A DNA stretch of 63,206 nucleotides, counting the filler, from Diploschistes diacapsis (Eukaryota): assembly GCA_023645945.1 (NCBI GenBank). It is 15 parts of 15 records of this genome, joined end to end, with 100 filler letters (N's around TTAATTAATTAA, not from the genome) between each part and the next. Parts side by side here need not be neighbours in the genome. Positions count along the whole stretch, not along the records: positions 57,924 to 60,519 come from JALAIB010002147.1; 14 more parts are not named here. One strand, written 5' to 3'. Shown piece by piece: positions 30,414-63,206 of this stretch. The position numbers and the translations under genes were made by a program. The notes under the pieces were generated by a model that ran no database searches, was not told the origin of the DNA, and worked only from the letters and a program-made list of their open reading frames with translations. The stretch's first letter is position 1, and every line of letters starts with the position of its first letter.

Positions 30414-30748
30414 TGTTACGATCCAAGTAACTAGGTGATAGTCCACTTGTTATGATCTCTATCTCTACAAGGTAGACACGAGGTATTGATTAAGGTGGGT
30501 TTGGTCTCTATTAGAAGAGGAGTATAGGAAAAAGAAGAAATAGATCGGTTATAAATCTGTACTGATCTCTAAAAAGATTACTTTCTCTTAATAGAAGGAA
30601 ACGAATATAAATTGATTTTAAACAATCACTTAAGATATTTATAAAAATGAACACGCCTCGATTTATAAAAGCTATAACGGTATTCTTGTATAATTAATTA
30701 ATTTTTAGCGAAATAAATTAATAAATAAATAGAATTACCGTTCTCCCG
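30414..30748. mobile_element. Nested gypsy family-A LTRs: + copy from 30414 interrupted at 30448 by an inverted copy
   Basis: TGTTACGATCCAAG at 30414, then TGTTATGATCTCTATCTC (reverse complement of the LTR 3' end) at 30448. Confidence 0.8.
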
Positions 30749-36698: not shown

Positions 36699-38099
36699 GT
36701 TTAGAAGTCTTGTCCTAAGAAGTATTCTATTGTATAGACTTTTATCCTTCACGGTATGCGTTAAGCCCTACTGCCCTAACCGGTCTAGCTAGAATCCCAG
36801 CAGGTTCAGGAAGGAAGTTGAGCTGAACTGAACTTTCTAGTTCACTTAACCTAAATCTTCCGAAATTAGATCGAGACTGCCATGCCTTCTACCTATCCGC
36901 TCAACACTCCCCCACAAGCGGAACCATCCAGCATATCTAGTTTAACTGGATCTTTTAACCTAGGCCGAGTTTCCTGCCTCGAGTAGTATAGTAGCTTCGC
37001 ACGCTATTAGCGAGAAAAAATGAAAACAATCCGCTTATCGGATAAATTATTTTTTATCTTATTACCCTTTTTTTAATCGAATGGGTTCAGTTTAGTTCAG
37101 CCGAACTTCGATGATTATCGAAGGATATCGAAAAGATTTAGTAATAATAAAGCTAAATATCGATTATTATTAAGTATCGAGATAGTCCAGCGGCGATAAA
37201 GCTGAATATCGATGATTATCGAAAGGTCGAAAAGGTTCAGTAAAGGTTTAACTAAATTCTTAATAATTGTCGAAAGTTTCGACTAGATCTAGCAACAATA
37301 GGTAACGATATTATTAATTATTAAAGATTGACGAAGGGATTCGACTAGATCTAGTAACGAAGGTAGCGATGCTACTAATTATCGAAGATTGACGAGAGAT
37401 TTAAGTAAATCTAATAACGAAAATAACGGTGTTATTAGTTATCAAAAATTAACGAGAGATTCGACTAGATCTAACAGCGAAGATAGCGGTACTATTAGTT
37501 ATCGAAAATTAACGAAGAAGATCGATGGAGTTTAGCGTAAGAATTCAACTGAACTTCGATCGTTAACGGAGGAAGAGAAGGAGGTCGAAGGTTTTTCATT
37601 AGTTTGGTAGATAATGAATCCGAAAGCCAAGTACTTCTTATTTCAGCATATTTTTTATAATAATATATCTTCTATTTTTGGATCTATTTATTTTAAGATT
37701 TTATAATTTAGATTTTAAGATTTCGGATTTCTTCGACTTAAATTATTAAAATTAATATAATCGGTCCCGCGTTCATAATCGTATTAATTACCGAAAAGAC
37801 TTATCTTTAATATATTAATAATACGAAATAATTCGAATAATTTAATTCGGGTTTATAATCTATTTAATAACGTAATAAATATATTAAAGTTTAAAATTTT
37901 AATTTAAAAGATTATTTTGCTTTATAGACTTTTATTTACGTAAAATACGCTAAGTTTTATTATTTATACCATTTTTTAATCGGTTTAGTTAAAATTCCAA
38001 AAAGTTTAGTTAAACTAAACCTCGAAGTTCAGCTCAACTGAACCTCCTTCTGGAACTCAGTCGAACTCCCAGCCATACCTTCTGCCTGTCTACTCAACA
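36699..38099 (-). mobile_element. Short (~1.4 kb) non-autonomous copia-type LTR element: 5' LTR ~37861-38099, degenerate PBS, internal 60-bp repeats, PPT, 3' LTR 36699-36906
   Basis: Both LTRs begin TGTTGAG; GTGGGGGAG polypurine tract immediately before the 3' LTR; no room for pol. Confidence 0.7.
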
Positions 38100-38703
38100 A
38101 AAACGAATGATAAAATTTAAACGTTTCTTTTGTTTCGAAGATGAAAAAGACATCGCTGTCTTACGACTTGGGATTCTCTTTTATTTAATACTTATGCTTA
38201 TCCTTCGGTACTTGTCGGGCCGACAAAGTTAAAGAAGAGGGATAGTATTACGATTCAAATGACTAGATAATAGTCCACTTAGTACTTCATAATTGATCGG
38301 ATATCTTCTCAATCATTCCTTATATATAGTCCAATTATGGTGATACTGGTCACGTGATGAATAAAAAGCTTTAAAGGTTATTTTACCTTTCTATAGGTAG
38401 AACGGGAGAACGTTAATTTTATCTATCTATTGATTTATTTTACTAGAGAGTAGTTGGCTATATATAAACACCGCTATGGTTCCTATAAGTTGGGGCGTGT
38501 TTACTTTTATAAATATCTTTAGCGATTGTTCGAGATCAATTTATATTCGTTACTTTTTATTAACAGAAAGCAATCTTTTTAGAGATCAATACAGACCTGT
38601 AACCGATCTACTTCTTCTCTTTCCTATACTCCTCTTCTAACAGAGACTAAACCTACCTTGATCAATACCTCGTGTCTACCTTGTAGAGATAGAGATCATA
38701 ACA
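38100..38703 (+). mobile_element. Gypsy family-A 3' end: start of antisense ORF, PPT, LTR 38246-38703
   Basis: AAAGAAGAGGGATAG PPT, then TATTACGATTC...GATCATAACA; antisense ATG at 38153. Confidence 0.85.
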
Positions 38704-43177: not shown

Positions 43178-43669
43178 TAAAGATATCTTTAAATAAATAC
43201 CGCTCTTCTATCTAACTGTATTTAGAAAAGTAAAATATAAAAAAATAGATCCCGGAACACGACTACGTCGAAAAAAAAATATTAAAAATAATAAAATTTT
43301 AAATATTTCAGTTGCCGAAAAAATACAGAACTATATTAAGATATAAAAATAACGAAATAAAAATTTCTTACTTATAAAACTTATATAAAGTTCGTTATAA
43401 GACAACGAACTATTGCGAAGAGGGATCGTATATAAACATAAAAATAAACCGCATACTTGATAGGGATAGTTCCTATAGGGCAGCTCCATTTAAGGAGGCC
43501 TGCTAGGTAACTCTAGAAAAAAGAATACATCCTATACTTCACAAATGTCCTACCTAGGTATGCTGTTGACTACGAAATCACACTACATTCCCCTACTACA
43601 CCACCTACGACTATCTACCTACTACAGCAAGGGAAGTCTCCCTAGACAGCGCGCCTTGTGTTTATATTA

Positions 43670-43826
43670 TATAATTAACTGCTCTTTAATAGAATAAATT
43701 AATAAATAGATAGAATTACCGTTCTCCCGTTCTATTTATAAAAGGATAAAATAGCCTTTAAGGCTTTCTACTTATCACGTGACCCGTGTTACTATGATTG
43801 GACTATATATAAGGAATGGTTGAGAA
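43670..43826 (-). mobile_element. Partial gypsy family-A LTR interrupted by the TIR element
   Basis: TCACGTGACCCGTG...GATTGGACTATATATAAGGAATGG shared with the other family-A LTRs. Confidence 0.75.
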
Positions 43827-44409: not shown

Positions 44410-47016
44410 CTTATATTATTCTAATAGATAAATCAATGCGATATTAATACCCTTTATTATTTAATATACTTTTAGAGATTAATATAAAATCGTATTTAAT
44501 CTTTTTCTTCTTCCTATTTACATTTTTCTCCTATACGAGACCAAATTTACCTTAATCGATACCTCGTGTCTACGTTATAAAGATAAAGATTATAATACTT
44601 AAATATCCTTAAAAATAAATGTAACTAATAGCACGACCGGGCGATCGCCACCGATAACTAGATCCGTACTATTCTAAATCCTAAGAAAAGCGACCCCATC
44701 GGAAAAAAGGAATGTCCCTATAGCGGACACGGCGGAAACCAAAAATAACGATTCCGGAAATAACGATAAACCCGACGAAAATAACCCGCACAAAAAACCC
44801 ATTATAAAAACAGCAAGATTAATAACGTTCCACGAAAACCGCAAAAAACTAAAACACTAAATACTCCAACTCTCAATATACTTCTTTTAGAACCCGCACA
44901 TCATAGACGACTAAAGACAGCGAACCGTCTTCGCCGTAAGATTCATACGTAACCGCGCATTGACATAGATAAAACCCTATCTCGACGTATACTTAAAAAA
45001 CCAAAAAGATAGCTACGAAATATTTAAAAACTTCGCAAAATTTAAAAAATAAGTCCGACTAACCTTCGGTATAACCAACGATAAAGAATATACGATCCGA
45101 GTCATCAAAACAGTTAACCAACGAAGCTCAGCTTCAAAATACACGGCAAAATTTTAAGAATTCGCCAAACTAACTAAATAAAATAAAGAAACCTTAATAG
45201 AAATATACAAGAACGGACTTAAAAACTTAATCAAAAATAAATTCATACGCAATTAAAACCAGATTCAGAATCTATCGACCCTTTAAGCTAAAATAATTAT
45301 CATAAACGACCGAATATTTAATCGAAAACAAGAACGTCGCTTTAATCGAAACAAAACTATTAAACCAAAACTTCGTTACCGCACTAATTATATAAAGAAC
45401 ACACAAAATACACGACATATAGACACCGACGCCATAGATCTCGATACCTTAACTAACAGACCCCGTCCTAATCAGAAAAAAAAAACGAAAGGACTCAAAG
45501 GAAGACCTTCAGCCAAAGGAAAGAAATGCTTCGAATATGGCAAGATTGGCCACTTCGCTCGAAATTATAGATCAAGAAACAAAATCGATAGAAAAGACAC
45601 CCTAACAACGACAGATCAATATTTCAACGCAACTATCGAATACCTTACAAAGGAATGGCCGACCGACGGTTAATTTTGGGAGAAAATCACCACCGAATCG
45701 GACAACACAGCCTGACAGGGCGACACCGACGATTCAGCGGATAAAGACACCGAAATTACGCCTTTACTAATTATAACATCAAACGACGAACAGGTTTCGA
45801 AAAGCAACGATATTCTAAACAAAAATATAACGGAATATAGAGAAATAACTAAACTATTGTTATCAATAATTTAAACATGCTATCTAATCCCTAAAACTAA
45901 ATCGAACAATCAAGGACCCTTAAACAACAATCCTAACGAAGACACATCGTACGAATTTAACGTTAACGGTCAAATCATTGAACGATAAGAATACTTTTAA
46001 AAAAAAGCTCTCGTAATTAACGATAAGAATCATCCGGACCATAAACGACTAAACAAATACGGAGACTTCGAATGCAATTACGAAAGACATCGCGACGGGA
46101 AGTACGTCCTATATAACAAGCTAATAACCGATATAACCTTCGCACGGTATTACGAACACGTCTTATTAAATATTCAACATCAAAATTATTACTTTATATA
46201 CGACTATATCGATAAGAATTATAAAACGCATCTCTATAATATAGAAAAAAAAGAAAACCTAAGACCATCATTTATAAACGGAAAAAACGTTATATCAAAA
46301 GTTTATTTCGCGTACGAAACGTGCAAGAACGGAAAGTACGAATATCCACTATATTTAACACTTACGTTATCGCGAAACTGCCGAGACAACAATTGTATAA
46401 TCTTAATATATCACGATTAGAGATTCTGAGACGGTATAATTTAGAAATTAAGATTAACGGACGAAGACCCAATGCACCTAGTATACGTTCTATAAAGTTA
46501 CCGTTTCTGCAGGGCTGCAAACTGCAAATACCACGATAGAGGATTTTCTTACCCCATTAATAAAGACATTATAAAAAAAGCCAGAGCTTTTCAGTTGTGA
46601 ATCGAACTAAAGAACTATGCGCCATAGACATAAGTACTGACGCGCGGATTCAAATGCGGAGAATTTGAGCCGATTTCGAAATCGGATTAGATCGACAAGC
46701 TATACGGACATTAATCGATTTTAGTGCTACGATAAACGCCATCTTAATTACTTATACATAAAGATTAAAGATAAAGAATTGCGAATTAAAAAAGAAATAT
46801 AACATCGAAATCGTAATAGGACGTAACGTTATACGAATTATTAAACGTACGCTTCCGCTAATAATTAAAATCTTAAGGCATGTTAAGGAACTTATCTTCG
46901 ATATAATAAAAATAATCGTCTACGATGTTATTCTCGGAGATCTTTAGTTAAACATTTACAACCCGTTAATCAACTTCAAGACACGGACTTTCGATATAAA
47001 TAAATATACGTATATT
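44410..47016 (+). mobile_element. Gypsy family-A 5' part: end of 5' LTR (to 44597), degenerate gag with zinc knuckle, aspartic protease
   Basis: KCFEYGKIGHFARNY (CCHC with Cys to Tyr) at ~45524-45570; TLIDFSAT (DSGA-like) at ~46710; many TAA stops. Confidence 0.85.
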
Positions 47017-57387: not shown

Positions 57388-57823
57388 GTTACGATCCAAG
57401 GTACTGTTCGGCAGTACTTGGCACGCAACAGCTAGTCGGGTACTTCCCAGCCATTCCTTATATATAGTCTAATTAGGGTGACACGGGTCACGTGATAAGT
57501 AAAAAGTCTTAAAAACTATTTTATTCAGTCGTAAATAGAAAAAAAGAACAATAATTCTATTTATTTATTTATTTATTTTATTAAAGGAACTGTTAGCTAT
57601 ATAAAAACGTCGCTATGGCCTTTATAAATCTAGAGCGTGTTTACTTTTATAAACATCTTAAGTTATTATTCGAGATCAATCTATATTCGTTATCTTTAGT
57701 ATTTTAAAGCCTTCTTTCCAGAAATAATCTAAGATCTATAATTATTCTATCTTTTTTTCCTGTTATATTCTTCTTTTAATAGAGATTAAACTTACCTTAA
57801 TTCTACTCGTGTATATCTTATAT
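57388..57823 (+). mobile_element. Gypsy family-A LTR (near complete; no PPT upstream)
   Basis: Starts TGTTACGATCCAAG; internal motifs shared with the other copies. Confidence 0.85.
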
Positions 57824-57923: not shown

Positions 57924-58654
57924 GATAAAAACAATCGATAAAATCTTAAGAAACGTTAACATACTTTTTACTAATTTTAACACATTCTACGCACTTAATA
58001 GATTTTAAAGGCATCTTATAACAGTCTTTACTCAGTCGAAAACAACCTTAATAAAAAAAAGAATCAAAAAATCTAAATCGATAGATCTAATCGATTAAGC
58101 GATAATTACGAAGAATTAAAGAAGATATCGTTGTTTCACGACTTAGGATTCTTTTTTGTTTAATATTTATATTAGACCCTTCGGCGAATCATCGGGCCGA
58201 TAATATTGAAAAAAAAAGATAATATCACGATTTAAATAATTACTAAATAATCTACTTAACACGTCCCAGCTTTTTTATATATAGGCTAATCATGGTGACG
58301 CGGGTTACGTAATCGATAAACGACAATCGACAACCGTCTGGCAGCTGACATCTAACGGTTGTTAGATGGGCGACGCCAGCCGGCTGGTATCTAATATTTA
58401 ACGATATTAACTATATATAGGAACGTCGCCGCGATTTTCTTAAATCCGATATATTTATTTTTATAAACATCCTTAATTATTACTCGGATCAATTTATATT
58501 CGTTATCTCTATTATTAAAACCTTCTTTCCGGAGATAGTCTAGGACCTATAATTATTCTACCTTCTTTTCCTACTTACACTCCTCTTCTAAACGAGACCA
58601 AATTCACTTTGATCAATACCTCGTGTCTACCTTATAGAAATAGAAATCATAACA
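57924..58654 (+). mobile_element. Gypsy family-A 3' end: antisense six-Cys ORF relic, PPT, LTR 58223-58654
   Basis: Same layout as 61244-62341; LTR ends ATCATAACA. Confidence 0.85.
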
Positions 58655-59220
58655 TTCTAATGCGTTGAATGCTTGTTTCTTTAATAATTCTTTTTCTTGA
58701 ATAAGATAGTTAAGCTTAACATTTTATAACTTACGTTTATCGAAAGTAACTGAATAAAATAATCCGTTATTATTTTTCTGAAATAATTGATATCTTAAAG
58801 CCCATTCGGACGCATCCGTGTCTATTATAAACGATTCGCGTAATTTAAGTTATATTAATATTGATTTATTAGTTAAAACAGTTTTTAACGCTTTAAAAAC
58901 AGTCTGACATTAAATAGTCCAAATGATCGTTCGATATTTATTTATACGGGTCTAAGTATTTTCGGATTTAATTAAGTTTGATAAAGGCGATGCGATATTA
59001 GTAAATTTAGATACAAATCGACGGTAATAAGTGATTAATTTTAAAAATTGTCGTACTTTATGAACATTCGTAGGGACAGATTATTTTAAAATAGTATCGA
59101 TTTTGTTCTAAGCTGGTCTAATAACGCTATTTTTAACGATATGATTCACAAACTCGAGAAACTTTTTACCGATTTGACACTTCTTAGGATTTACGTATAA
59201 ATCGTTTCTTTTTAATTCTG
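58655..59220 (-). mobile_element. Degenerate gypsy RT/RNase H fragment
   Basis: LYVNPKKC..., VPTNVHKVRQFL..YYRRFV..IASPL, FIIDTDASEWAL, NYLIQEKELL. Confidence 0.88.
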
Positions 59221-60519
59221 TGTTATGATCTCTATCTCTACAAAGTAGACACGAGGTATTGATCAAGGTGGGTTTGGTCTCGTTTAGAAGAGGAGTGTAA
59301 GTAGGAAAAGAAGGTAGAGCAATTACAGGTCTTAGACTGTTTTTAGAAAGGAAGGTTTTCTAATAATAGAAGTAACGAATATAGATTGATTCCGAATAAT
59401 AATTATGGATGTCTATAAAAGTAAATATATTAAGATTTATAAAAGTTATGGCGACGTTTATATATATAGTTTAGAATAATAATTAATTGCCGATAATAAA
59501 GTTGTCGCGATAGCGTTGTTATTAATAAAAACCTACCCGAGCAGATCTGTTCCGATAAACATCTATTATCAGGTATCTATCAGTCACGTGACCCGCGTCA
59601 CCTTGGCTGGTTTATATATAAGAAAGCTGGGACGTGTTAAGTCTGGTACTTGGATCGTAATATTATTCCTTTTTTTCAGCATTATCGGCCCCATGATTCG
59701 CCGAAAGGTCTGATATAAATATTAAATAAAAAAGAATCCCAAGTCGTGGGACAACGATATCTTCTTTAATTTCCTGTAATCATAGATTTGCCGACCGAAT
59801 CTTTCGATTAAATAAAACCGTTGATTTCTTTTGCTTCTACTGTTCTGTTTCTTACAATTGTATTATTATGTCGTTCATTTTTTCCCGCTGCGAGAGATGC
59901 GTTCGTTTTAGACGGAAGAACTGCGTATCGATATCCTAGAAGGTTATAGACAGGATACGCGTTTAAACGGAATCTAGGTTAGAGGTAGAAGAGGAGAAAA
60001 GACGAAAGCTTTTTTTTTAGTTAGTAGAACACGAGGCCCGTATTGAGAGACTACGGAAGACTTTTAAGCTAACCGAAAAGAAATTTATAAAACAAGTAAA
60101 GTGTCTTGTTGATCAACTCGACGAAGAGGCGGAGGCGGTCGGTGACTTTAATAATAGTATGGTGCTTACGGGTAGCCCGCAAGATCTTTAGTTCTTAGCG
60201 GCTATGTCGCTATTTTAAATAAACTGGGAGTTAGGGGACGAGGTCCCTGTCCCGATAAGTTAGTTTTTATATTAGGTATACGTATGTTTCGTAAATTTTC
60301 TATCTTTAATCCTAATTGTTTTTAATAGTAAGTCCGTTAATGTCGTAGAATTTCGCTAATTTTATCTTATAGTGTTTTAGGTTTTTTTTAGGTTCTTATA
60401 TTATTTCCGATTTTGAGTAATCTTTCTATTAAATTAAGTATCTATCGTCTTTATAATATATTATTATTTCGACTTCGTATTCATTTTCGTTATTTAATTC
60501 GAAATAGAAGGTATCTTAT
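59221..60519 (-). mobile_element. Gypsy family-A 3' end (inverted): chromodomain relic, antisense ORF, PPT, LTR 59221-59662
   Basis: ENEYEVE..YLI..DY..EPKKNL chromodomain relic at ~60370-60490; LTR termini TATTACGATCC / GATCATAACA. Confidence 0.88.
59757..60263 (+). pseudogene. Retrotransposon-borne antisense ORF: Zn2Cys6-like motif plus coiled coil (stop-interrupted)
   Basis: C-x2-C-x5-C-x9-C-x2-C-x7-C at 59832-59924 (CFYCSVSYNCIIMSFIFSRCERCVRFRRKNC); single frame with internal TAG/TAA stops. Confidence 0.8.
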
Positions 60520-60619: not shown

Positions 60620-62341
60620 CGGTTAAACAGAAAGAATGAATTAAACTTTCGAACAATATTTACGGTATTACGTTAATCAGAATATAGATAATTGGGTTGA
60701 ATTATTATCGAACGCCGAATACTATTTTAATAATAAATATAAAGAAATTAAAAAGATTTAGAATATACGATTACCCAATAACGAGATACTGAGAAATATT
60801 AAAAAATACACGATCTTAAAAAAGAATCATTAATTAAAAAAGGGAAATAAAATCTATCTATATATAAATAATTTTAGAACACGTAAACTTTTTAAAAAAC
60901 TCGATCACGTTAAAGTCGGATCTTTTCTTATCGATAAATAACCCGTTATACCGGACGAAATCAGACGAGTTAATTATCGACTTAAATTATTAAAGGACGT
61001 AAAAGTTTATTCAATGTTTTATTTACAATATCTCGAATTAATATATCTAGACATACCGTTATAAAAAACCTTTTATTTCGAAATAAATAACGAAAACGAA
61101 TACGAAGTTAAAAAGATCTTGAATAATAACCTTAACGGATTTCTTATTAAGTAGAAAGGATACTCGTTAGAACAGAACACGTGGAAATCTTTAGAAAATT
61201 TGAATAATTATAAGAACAAGATAAGAGAATATCGTAGACTTATTTAATTTAGAAGGATAGAAGTTTTATTTTTTAAAAATTAATTTAACTGAGCCGGCGA
61301 TATTGTAGTTAGTTTTAACAATTCTGGACCGAACTCCGAAGGCACGCCTTCTTAGGCGTTCGCGTACGTTTCGGACGATTTTAAATCTAGTTCTTTCGTT
61401 AAACATCTCGCTTGCGCGTTCGCACGATTTTCCGTTAGCTTAAGAATCTTTCGGTTACGGCGAATGCGACGTTTGCGTTAGAGACGACGATCTTTAATTT
61501 TACGGAGTTGTTTTTTTAGCTCTTCCTTTTGCTTATTATTTTCGTTAATAAGCTTTTTATCCTTCTCGATCTCGTCTTTTTTCGAAAGGATGATCCGTTT
61601 AATTACTTTTTATGTAATAGAGACACAGTTCTTTTTATTAGATTTAGTATAGCGAGTATATTTTATCGAGATAGAAGGCATCCTGATATAGTCGTGAAAG
61701 AATAGGTAGTGGTTATAAGATAATGTGTCTAAAAAGCCCCGAAGACGAATGATAGAGTTTAAACGTTTTTTTTGTATTAAAGATGAAGAAGATATCGCTG
61801 TCCTACGATTTAAGATTTTCTTTTGTTTAGTATTTATATTAATTCTTCGGTGCTTGTCGGGCCGATAAGGCTGAAGGAAAAGGATAATATTACGATCCAA
61901 GTTATTAGTCGGTAGTATTTAGTACGTAATAGCTAGTCGGGCATTTTTTAATTATTTTTTATATATAGTCCAATCAGGGTGACACGGGTCACGTGATGAG
62001 TAGAAGGTCTTAGAAACCATTTTATTTAGTTATAGGTAGAAAGGGAGAACGGTAATTTTATTTATTTATTTATTTACTTTATTGAGGGAGTTGTTGGTTA
62101 TATAGGAACGTCGTTATGGCTTTTATGAGTTTAGGGCGTGTTTACTTTTATAGATATCTTGAGTTATTGCTCGGGATTAATTTATATTCGTTATTTTTAT
62201 TATTTTAGAGCTTTTTTATTAGAGATAGTTTAAGATTTATGATTGTTCTATCTTCTTTTCCTGCCACATTCCTCTTCTAACAGAGATCAAACCCACCTTG
62301 ATCCTACTCGTGTATATCTTGTATAGATAGAGATCATAACA
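60620..62341 (+). mobile_element. Gypsy family-A (chromovirus) 3' end: integrase, chromodomain, antisense ORF 61795-61244, PPT, LTR 61888-62341
   Basis: G*TERMN*TFEQYLRYYV..NWVELL, KKLDHVKVGSF, EYEVKKIL..FLIK*KGY..NTWKSLENL. Confidence 0.9.
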
Positions 62342-62929
62342 CTAGTTTGCTTTCGATGTCTAGTACTTCTAAGTATAATAGATCTAGGAAATCTTAATTA
62401 AAGATATCTTCCGAGATACCAGATAATAATAGATAACTTTAAACTAGCTTCAAACTAGCAGAAAGAAGATCGAAGATCAGATCGACATATCTAGCTAAAA
62501 CTTGATTATAACTTAGTTAAAAAAAGGAAAGAAAGATAAAACAGTGCATAGAGCCAAGTTCTGGTAGCTATAAATGGAAAAATAGGGAAGTTCACAAAGA
62601 CCAAGCTTTAATATGAATTCTAGTCCACTAAAGAGGACTGATACAGACAAAGACTTGTTGCTGGAGCTCTAAAGACGCTCTAGGAATTAGTCGAACAATC
62701 GTTGCTACCAAATGTCAGTTTATAATCAAATTTGTAAGTGGTGAAAAAGATAGATTCTAAAAGCTAGGTAGGTGTAACGAGCTCTTATAGCAACAGGTAG
62801 TGGATGCCTAATGGCATCGTGGGCCATGACGTCACAAGCAACACCGGCAGATGCAAGTCTAAGCGACACGCAAGCGACACCTCCTAGTAGCAGCAACAGC
62901 CTGTAGCCATAGCTGCTATAGCTACTACA
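62342..62929 (-). mobile_element. Gypsy family-B 5' LTR (62713-62929) with intact PBS and leader
   Basis: TGTAGTAGC...ACTGACA, then TT and TGGTAGCAAC (complementary to an initiator tRNA-Met-type 3' end); leader homologous to 55650-55990. Confidence 0.82.
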
Positions 62930-63206
62930 GGGTTATTCGATTCGAATAACGTCAAATCGGGTTAGTTAATTCTAGAACGGCTCGTAACGCCTAATTAAAT
63001 TCTTTATTAACCTTTCGCAGTTCGGTTATATTTGGTAGAAAGTTATATAATAAGAATAAATCTAAATCGAATTAATTCGAGATTGAAAGAGGGCTGTAAA
63101 ATGGAAGTGAAAGGGTCCGGTAAGTCGAATAAAGTTTATTAAACACGGTTATAAAATTAATAAATTATAATTCAATATTAATAAAGCTTATTTAAACGTT
63201 TCGATT

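Follow-up and report, generated by a model that had tools for sequence, protein, structure and literature searches.

A probable antisense accessory gene for a cysteine-cluster, coiled-coil protein in a degraded chromovirus from Diploschistes diacapsis

For decades plant LTR retrotransposons, and since 2011 those of Botrytis, have been known to carry extra genes near the 3' end that are read antisense to the rest of the element. The fungal precedent, brtn, is carried antisense by Boty-like Ty3/gypsy elements of Botrytis cinerea and of Sclerotinia (Zhao et al. 2011, as described in PMC8365987, PMC7264820 and PMC4227169). The citing passages give brtn as absent from the current B05.10 annotation (PMC8365987), mention a 'brtn-106' (PMC4227169) and report a Monilinia transcript similar to BRTN (PMC5987419). 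The plant counterparts are antisense open reading frames (ORFs) termed aORF-3R, placed between pol and the 3' long terminal repeat (LTR): gene23 of maize Grande, and those of rice RIRE2, Silene Retand and Phaseolus PvRetro13. The passages on these plant genes describe some products as nuclear, give the Grande gene an upstream promoter of its own, and describe no clear database similarity for any aORF-3R product, with function unknown (PMC7264820). Here we analyze a gene of this kind in a 63,206-nucleotide stretch of DNA (hereafter the window) from the Diploschistes diacapsis assembly GCA_023645945.1. Positions 59757–60263 of its plus strand are probably an accessory gene of an ascomycete chromovirus lineage, antisense between the pol stop codon and the polypurine tract (PPT), that was inactivated by repeat-induced point mutation (RIP).

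The gene, hereafter copy A, belongs to an element on the minus strand of the window (element A), with the following parts:

59757..60263 (+): antisense ORF copy A, 169 codons, RIP-degraded; family hidden Markov model (HMM) 95.3 bits, independent E-value 9.5e-31
59832..59924 (+): six-cysteine cluster of copy A, C-x2-C-x5-C-x9-C-x2-C-x7-C, all six codons still TGY
59760..59775 (-): polypurine tract of element A, from direct sequence reading
59221..59753 (-): 3' LTR of element A, 533 bp, TG...CA, from LTR alignment
60312..60519 (-): 3' end of pol with RIP-degraded chromodomain, element A; blastn 65% to the chromodomain region of element B, E 1e-14

A first-pass annotation, made from the sequence alone, had described a single-frame relic of 169 codons lying antisense between a chromodomain and a PPT, and our translation is identical to its string. 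The position holds as well: pol lies on the minus strand, and the LTR, read on that strand, follows the purine tract and runs from TGTCCCACGA at 59753 to ...ATCATAACA at 59221. The ORF and pol converge, with stop codons at 60261–60263 and 60312–60314, respectively, and pol is broken off by the contig end at 60519. Copy A contains no frameshift, since the family profile spans it in one frame (59769–60158, 95.3 bits). It has five internal stops followed by a terminal TAG (in order TAG, TAA, TAG, TAG, TAA, TAG), and at the five internal sites relatives carry W, Q, Q, Q and R/Q, in keeping with the claim that all internal stops are TAG or TAA, one or two transitions from Trp or Gln codons. The first codon is ATA, which reads as ATG altered by a TpG-to-TpA change. 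Part of the ORF coincides with the PPT itself, so that residues 2–6 (SSLIS) are encoded by the complement of AGGAAATTAAAGAAGA. Across six frames of the whole 63 kb, the six-cysteine pattern matched only once, at 59832–59924.

Copy A is not alone. A tblastn search of the window with its ORF found two further copies, B (61765–61385) and C (58128–57934), and a stub, D, completes the set:

61280..61795 (-): antisense ORF copy B, 172 codons, three internal TAA; HMM 77.3 bits
60621..61247 (+): integrase C-terminus and chromodomain of element B; Pfam Chromo E 1.9e-5
61799..62341 (+): 3' LTR of element B, 543 bp, from LTR alignment
57925..58128 (-): antisense ORF copy C, first 68 codons, ending at the contig edge; HMM 19.3 bits, independent E-value 2e-7
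58132..58654 (+): 3' LTR of element C, from LTR alignment
38094..38153 (-): ORF stub copy D, ATG kept, MSFSSSKQKKRLNFIIRF, then unrelated sequence
38157..38703 (+): LTR of element D, 547 bp, from LTR alignment

Copy B aligns with the intact relative P0006 without gaps over 171 amino acids (46% identity, E 1e-49), and copy A with P0008 at 28% identity (E 4e-20). As in element A, pol and the ORF of element B converge, with stop codons at 61245–61247 and 61280–61282; its chromodomain scores 24.9 bits in RIP-mutated sequence, 0.2 below the Chromo cut-off of 25.1. Copy D holds only the first 19 codons, but it is the sole window copy whose start codon is unmutated (ATG, 38153–38151). The methionine that the first-pass annotation placed at the start, lost to ATA in copy A, is thus kept in copy D.

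The junction between ORF and LTR is fixed. In all four elements, 3 nt separate the start codon from the first base of the LTR (59753, 61799, 58132 and 38157 in A, B, C and D), and the sequences beyond the four LTR ends are all different. These flanks indicate four separate insertions, each of which carried the ORF. Elements A and B display the full layout of pol, reversed ORF, PPT and LTR, and C and D the LTR–ORF junction. A and B also have the hallmarks of chromoviruses, namely a C-terminal chromodomain, TG...CA LTRs and a PPT, and their ORFs occupy the position that defines antisense additional ORFs, on the opposite strand between the pol stop and the PPT and 3' LTR. The same junctions occur in diverged DNA contigs from three public runs, each from a different study: X2 record 9 (59702–59827) and X3 record 17 (59720–59880) span the LTR end and the ORF start, and X1 record 7 (59989–60355) spans the ORF end and the pol end. 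When an HMM is built solely from members outside the window, its only matches within the window are A, B and C. With three copies and a stub here and intact relatives elsewhere, the earlier proposal of a genuine, conserved, element-borne antisense gene stands.

A different layout, in which the ORF would form the sense 5' end of an element (LTR, primer-binding site, gag), was ruled out on three counts. The LTR is bordered by a purine tract where that layout calls for a TGG primer-binding site; in two elements, the chromodomain and the ORF converge; and the junction is common to four insertions with different flanks.

The ORF copies in the window are dead relics, inactivated by RIP. The contigs that hold the elements are AT-rich, with a GC content of 0.32 vs 0.53 in the first 25 kb of the window. 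Their TpA/ApT index is 1.10–1.38, compared with 0.71 in the genic contig, and their (CpA+TpG)/(ApC+GpT) index is 0.49–0.62, compared with 1.24. Transitions make up 88–91% of the differences among copies in the window and in contigs of the three public runs. Copy B shows the effect on the protein most directly: five of its six Cys codons now read TAY (Tyr), through TGY-to-TAY changes.

What the intact gene encodes is visible in its relatives. A profile of A, B and the database protein P0003, scored exhaustively with HMMER against 1.84 billion representative proteins, returned 51 proteins at E ≤ 1e-3 and 7 at E ≤ 1e-10, with the best E-values reaching 1e-20. Of these, 43 were inspected, and all but P0048 carry the family motifs; nearly all 43 are intact proteins of ~90–210 amino acids. 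The inspection covered all matches except P0012, P0013, P0016, P0027, P0038, P0045, P0050 and P0055, among which P0016 (1455 amino acids, 17 matched stretches) is probably a coiled-coil false positive. A word-index protein search was far less sensitive, linking copy A to a single relative of 81 amino acids (P0003) and copy B to no match; with the family profile it gave 17 proteins, unnamed except for one 'hypothetical protein'. Scans of metagenome contigs (two) and viral contigs (one) gave no relative.

The sources of 30 family matches were looked up, and all 30 are ENA, JGI/IMG or Logan assemblies; none of them comes from NCBI or UniRef, and none is named brtn. The name 'hypothetical protein' is attached to clusters P0005, P0025, P0039 (member P0056) and P0053, and the other matches looked up are nameless. 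Annotated protein sets thus seem to lack the family, one likely cause being the masking of repeats ahead of gene calling.

Although the relatives average only 24% identity, they share Cys, Trp and Arg columns that vary little or not at all, as well as a common order of parts: a Ser/Pro-rich start, a basic helix, six cysteines, a VSW motif (in full V-S-W-x-S-x-D-R), a long helix and, last, an acidic tail. The long helix runs for 70–100 residues and ends R-x-R-K-V-L-x2-A-E-x-R-A-x2-K-x2-C-L, and in the closest subfamily a short F-G-P...L-A-x-M-S-P motif follows the acidic tail. The Ser/Pro-rich start has a simple origin, in that the complement of a polypurine tract encodes such residues; across 23 members, Ser and Pro account for 0.45 of residues 2–9 (83/184) vs 0.13 elsewhere (503/3973). 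The six Cys, followed by the long helix, are conserved across the family. The idea that the first three cysteines lie upstream of the true Met and are unconserved was rejected: intact relatives start ~38 residues earlier and have all six. As a separate observation, a seventh Cys is also invariant; it belongs to the K-x2-C-L motif that closes the long helix (C144 in P0005, C131 in P0008).

We compared the cysteine cluster with the Gal4-type Zn2Cys6 domain, to which the first-pass annotation had likened it. Among 23 members with an N-terminus, a loose six-Cys pattern occurs in 19 and four lack a complete motif; the canonical C-x2-C-x6-C-x8-12-C-x2-C-x6-C is present in 15 of the 23, as read by eye from the motif strings. 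Pfam Zn_clus (PF00172) is the commonest Pfam match, found in 14 of 37 members at E ≤ 10 (best E 0.0019), and its alignments place the six Cys in register, at profile positions 1/2–31/32. Next come DUF3716 (PF12511) and Kbp-5, with four of 37 members each; the DUF3716 match covers the N-terminal helix and the first Cys triad. In a search of PDB sequences, four of 26 weak rows are Zn2Cys6 proteins (PPR1, GAL4 and two Pho7; E 2.2–6.6), amid coiled coils, and the top three Foldseek rows are the Leu3 DNA-binding domain, the only small-domain matches. A lead from the ESM Atlas stands apart from these comparisons: the N-terminal 75 residues of P0031 retrieved unnamed Ascomycota clusters at 0.91.

AlphaFold2 models P0005 (31 sequences) with a mean predicted local distance difference test score (pLDDT) of 89.7, placing a helix at residues 3–18, then the Cys region, then a helix at 61–161. 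Two P0008 chains with four zinc ions are predicted to form a homodimer with a score of 0.53, vs 0.02 for the best of three controls. The separate runs share at least 81% of their contacts, and the partner pLDDT is at least 75. Of 30 proteins solved as same-chain pairs, 21 attain the homodimer mark, and of 23 solved as single chains none does; for eukaryotic proteins, 17 of 29 pairs and none of 30 single chains attain it; these counts are only a rough guide for P0008, because its prediction left the alignment unused and included zinc. The predicted contacts (114–76, 93–93, 69–118) describe an antiparallel coiled coil over residues 60–128, and in this model the region of the seventh Cys comes close to the partner's Cys cluster. 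A dimerization coiled coil after the cluster, as the first-pass annotation proposed, is only partly borne out: a homodimer is predicted, but its antiparallel arrangement and its helix of 70–100 residues depart from Gal4.

Several observations weigh against a Gal4-type cluster, or against the wider picture of a chromovirus gene for a zinc-cluster dimer. The Zn_clus gathering score of 21 bits is reached by none of 37 members (best 18.7), and the DUF3716 gathering score of 22 bits likewise by none of 37 (best 18.1 bits, E 0.0025); the RIP-degraded window copies match no Pfam family. Spacing deviates from the strict form, with x5/x7 in copy A, P0005, P0006 and P0008 and x11 in one member. Gal4-type signatures of the PROSITE type have basic, DNA-contacting residues between Cys2 and Cys3. 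Here the first triad is mostly non-basic (e.g. CDHCIKRNKSC, CDRCSVRGVDC), and the basic run lies in the second, C-x2-C-T-R-R-G-R/K-P-C. Searching PDB sequences with the family profile gave nothing at E below 0.2, and the Leu3 rows of Foldseek are weak (E 2.1–5.3). The coiled-coil dimer may pass its benchmark through mere likeness to solved coiled coils, and the chromovirus position is shown only for the window copies, the public-run contigs and P0063, a relative described below. Modeled alone, the N-terminus of copy A was weak (pLDDT 68.9), and a fold search with it matched nothing; P0003 retrieved only coiled-coil look-alikes from the ESM Atlas, at 0.87 or less.

Because no score reaches threshold, the basic residues fall in the second triad and the subfamily of copy A has x5/x7 spacing, we do not file the family as a Gal4-type member; the assignment is plausible but unproven. 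That the cluster forms some zinc site is likely, and we lean only slightly toward a binuclear, Gal4-like one. The earlier claims survive in part. The Gal4-type spacing is there as six cysteines, but copy A has x5/x7 in place of strict x6. The element's own small zinc-cluster protein is recognizable as a Cys-cluster, coiled-coil protein that misses the Zn_clus threshold. The proposed comparison with Pfam and Foldseek ranked Zn_clus (14 of 37 members) and Leu3 (top rows) first, always below threshold or at E 2.1–5.3.

The strongest competing explanation accepts the gene as real but gives it another zinc module, DUF3716-like for instance, that makes protein or RNA contacts, e.g. in copy-number control or as a chaperone; the product would then be neither a Gal4-type binuclear DNA-binding protein nor a sequence-specific regulator of the LTR. 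The missed Zn_clus threshold and the basic second triad fit this explanation, as does an antiparallel dimer, which would set the two clusters at opposite ends, unlike Gal4-type dimers. DUF3716 is moreover the second most frequent Pfam match (four of 37, best E 0.0025), aligning with the N-terminal helix and first triad, and proteins with this domain are described as carried by the REP9 transposon of Z. tritici (PMC8232023, in the passage cited). Against it, 15 of 23 members keep canonical Zn2Cys6 spacing, Zn_clus matches are 3.5 times as frequent as DUF3716 matches and hold all six Cys in register, and Leu3 supplies the only small-domain matches of Foldseek. We consider this alternative unlikely, and continue with the reading of a chromovirus accessory gene whose product may carry a Gal4-like cluster.

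How such a gene could be expressed is suggested by the LTR, which contains one strongly conserved segment:

59584..59620 (strand not assigned): conserved LTR block with a CACGTG-containing palindrome, CCAAT/ATTGG and TATATATA, from a 5-LTR alignment

Within it, the invariant block TATATATAG-CCAAT-GGTGAC-N5-GTCACGTGA survives RIP in all five LTRs (A, B, C, D and a partial one at 57389–57823), and the palindrome GGTGAC-N5-GTCACGTGA includes a CACGTG E-box. Read in the direction of the ORF, the block presents the E-box, ATTGG and TATA, followed in copy A by ~137 nt to the start codon. This order is usual for a promoter aimed at the ORF. The ATG lies 3 nt from the LTR and leaves no other room for a 5' untranslated region, which would place both promoter and 5' untranslated region inside U3, read backwards. 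The invariant block is a putative promoter of the antisense ORF, and it could be a bidirectional promoter core.

Two further features of the LTR bear on this arrangement. A T/G-CGGGCCGA-T/C-AA motif lies ~60–70 nt into the LTR (~59682–59692, minus strand) in all four LTRs that cover the column (A–D). CGG/CCG half-sites are the usual targets of zinc-cluster proteins, and by that analogy the motif might, speculatively, be a putative target of the encoded protein. P0063 is a predicted protein on a 2228-bp ENA contig; it runs from the end of the LTR directly into the antisense ORF, and its residues 5–39 match the translated LTR ends of A and C at 59–60% identity (E 2e-6 and 3e-6). This match of its N-terminal extension to LTR termini implies that the first ~100 nt of the LTR are conserved in a distant subfamily.

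An antisense transcript might also act as RNA, pairing with the element's genomic RNA to give double-stranded or small interfering RNA, with the reading frame incidental or secondary. The ORF overlaps the PPT and adjoins pol, and regulatory antisense transcripts are discussed for several retroelements in the passage cited (PMC7264820). Yet intact frames of 160–200 codons are kept in relatives averaging 24% identity, and the invariant or near-invariant Cys, Trp and Arg columns, together with a confident fold, point to selection on a protein, which makes the RNA explanation very improbable. Weaker again, and barely credible, is a chance open frame or a once-transduced piece of host gene with no role for the element: odd frames do arise in AT-rich, RIP-mutated DNA and gene transduction by retroelements is known (PMC7264820, passage cited), but the junction is common to four independent insertions in the window, family E-values go down to 1e-20 and diverged subfamilies retain the LTR adjacency.

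For a protein-coding accessory gene, we propose the following sequence of events. The mRNA would start at an antisense promoter within U3 of the 3' LTR, the Cys cluster would bind zinc and the long helix would pair as an antiparallel homodimer. The dimer might then bind nucleic acid and regulate the element's own LTR or copy number, a step that we regard as tentative and rather unlikely. The most specific version, a chromovirus-encoded dimeric zinc-cluster DNA-binding protein that is made from a bidirectional U3 promoter, binds its own LTR and sets the sense/antisense balance or copy number, is more doubtful still. If it were true, the protein would be the first Zn2Cys6-type transcription factor carried by a transposon and would parallel, in a fungus, the antisense regulators of retroviruses; since both LTRs are identical, the 5' LTR would also drive transcription out of the element into the host DNA.

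The rest of the window concerns the setting of these elements. The best DNA match to the stretch is a lichen metagenome run. Contigs in the window are joined by uniform linkers:

25313–60619: N44-TTAATTAATTAA-N44 linkers, 14 identical (28 N runs of 44), between contigs of ~2.6 kb in decreasing order of size

Adjacency across any linker is therefore artificial, which applies to the contigs of copy A (57924–60519) and copy B (60620–63206, the next in line); the record has the look of a string of unplaced contigs. More fragments of the same LTR family occur at 43668–43826, 44453–44599 and 30448–30747, in small contigs; the family HMM found no ORF copy beside these three in the window. A gypsy reverse transcriptase/RNase H fragment at 58682–58921 (minus strand; Pfam RT_RNaseH_2, E 7.8e-14) sits between the outward-facing ends of the LTRs of C and A, which suggests two oppositely oriented insertions into an older element.

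Among known proteins, Gal4-type factors (Gal4, Ppr1, Leu3, Pho7) resemble the family in being fungal, in the six-Cys spacing of most members and in the helix, predicted to dimerize, after the cluster. They differ in that the family is tiny, transposon-encoded and without a regulatory middle domain, with a far longer helix that is predicted to pair antiparallel and with sub-threshold scores. The gene may be a fungal counterpart of the retroviral antisense factors made from a 3' LTR. HBZ of human T-cell leukemia virus type 1 (HTLV-1) is an antisense basic leucine zipper (bZIP) protein that contains no zinc. The two share a 3'-end antisense gene, a transcription start in the 3' LTR (predicted here), a small dimerizing protein with a basic region and a plausible role as regulator of their own promoter. 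The analogy is one of layout only, with no sequence relation, HBZ being a bZIP protein without zinc. An antisense promoter in the 3' LTR is described for HTLV in the passage cited (PMC7264820). The closest transposon-borne proteins by domain are REP9-1 and REP9-2, described as DUF3716 proteins of a class II transposon of Zymoseptoria tritici (PMC8232023, passage cited). They too are accessory proteins of a fungal transposon, weakly matched over the N-terminal helix and first triad, but of another element class, and only four of 37 family members match DUF3716, below the cut-off.

Among fungi, brtn is an earlier example of an antisense 3' accessory ORF, which reduces the novelty that the first-pass annotation had left to be checked. 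As described in the citing passages, brtn is likewise an extra gene on the opposite strand between pol and the 3' LTR of a chromodomain gypsy element of a fungus; those passages mention no Cys cluster, coiled coil or PPT overlap, and the comparison is by description only. In full-text literature searches, no fungal retrotransposon was described with an antisense protein of zinc-cluster or coiled-coil type. New as far as searched are the domain make-up, a family with at least 42 recognizable relatives, the overlap with the PPT, the 3-nt gap between start codon and LTR and the predicted antiparallel dimer. The plant aORF-3R genes, as portrayed in PMC7264820, share the position and orientation and are conserved within families, but they belong to non-chromovirus lineages and are not known to resemble the present family in sequence, and the present family differs from them in its recognizable six-Cys module. 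This module, together with a fixed layout and intact members that can be expressed, makes the role of such genes directly testable in fungi.

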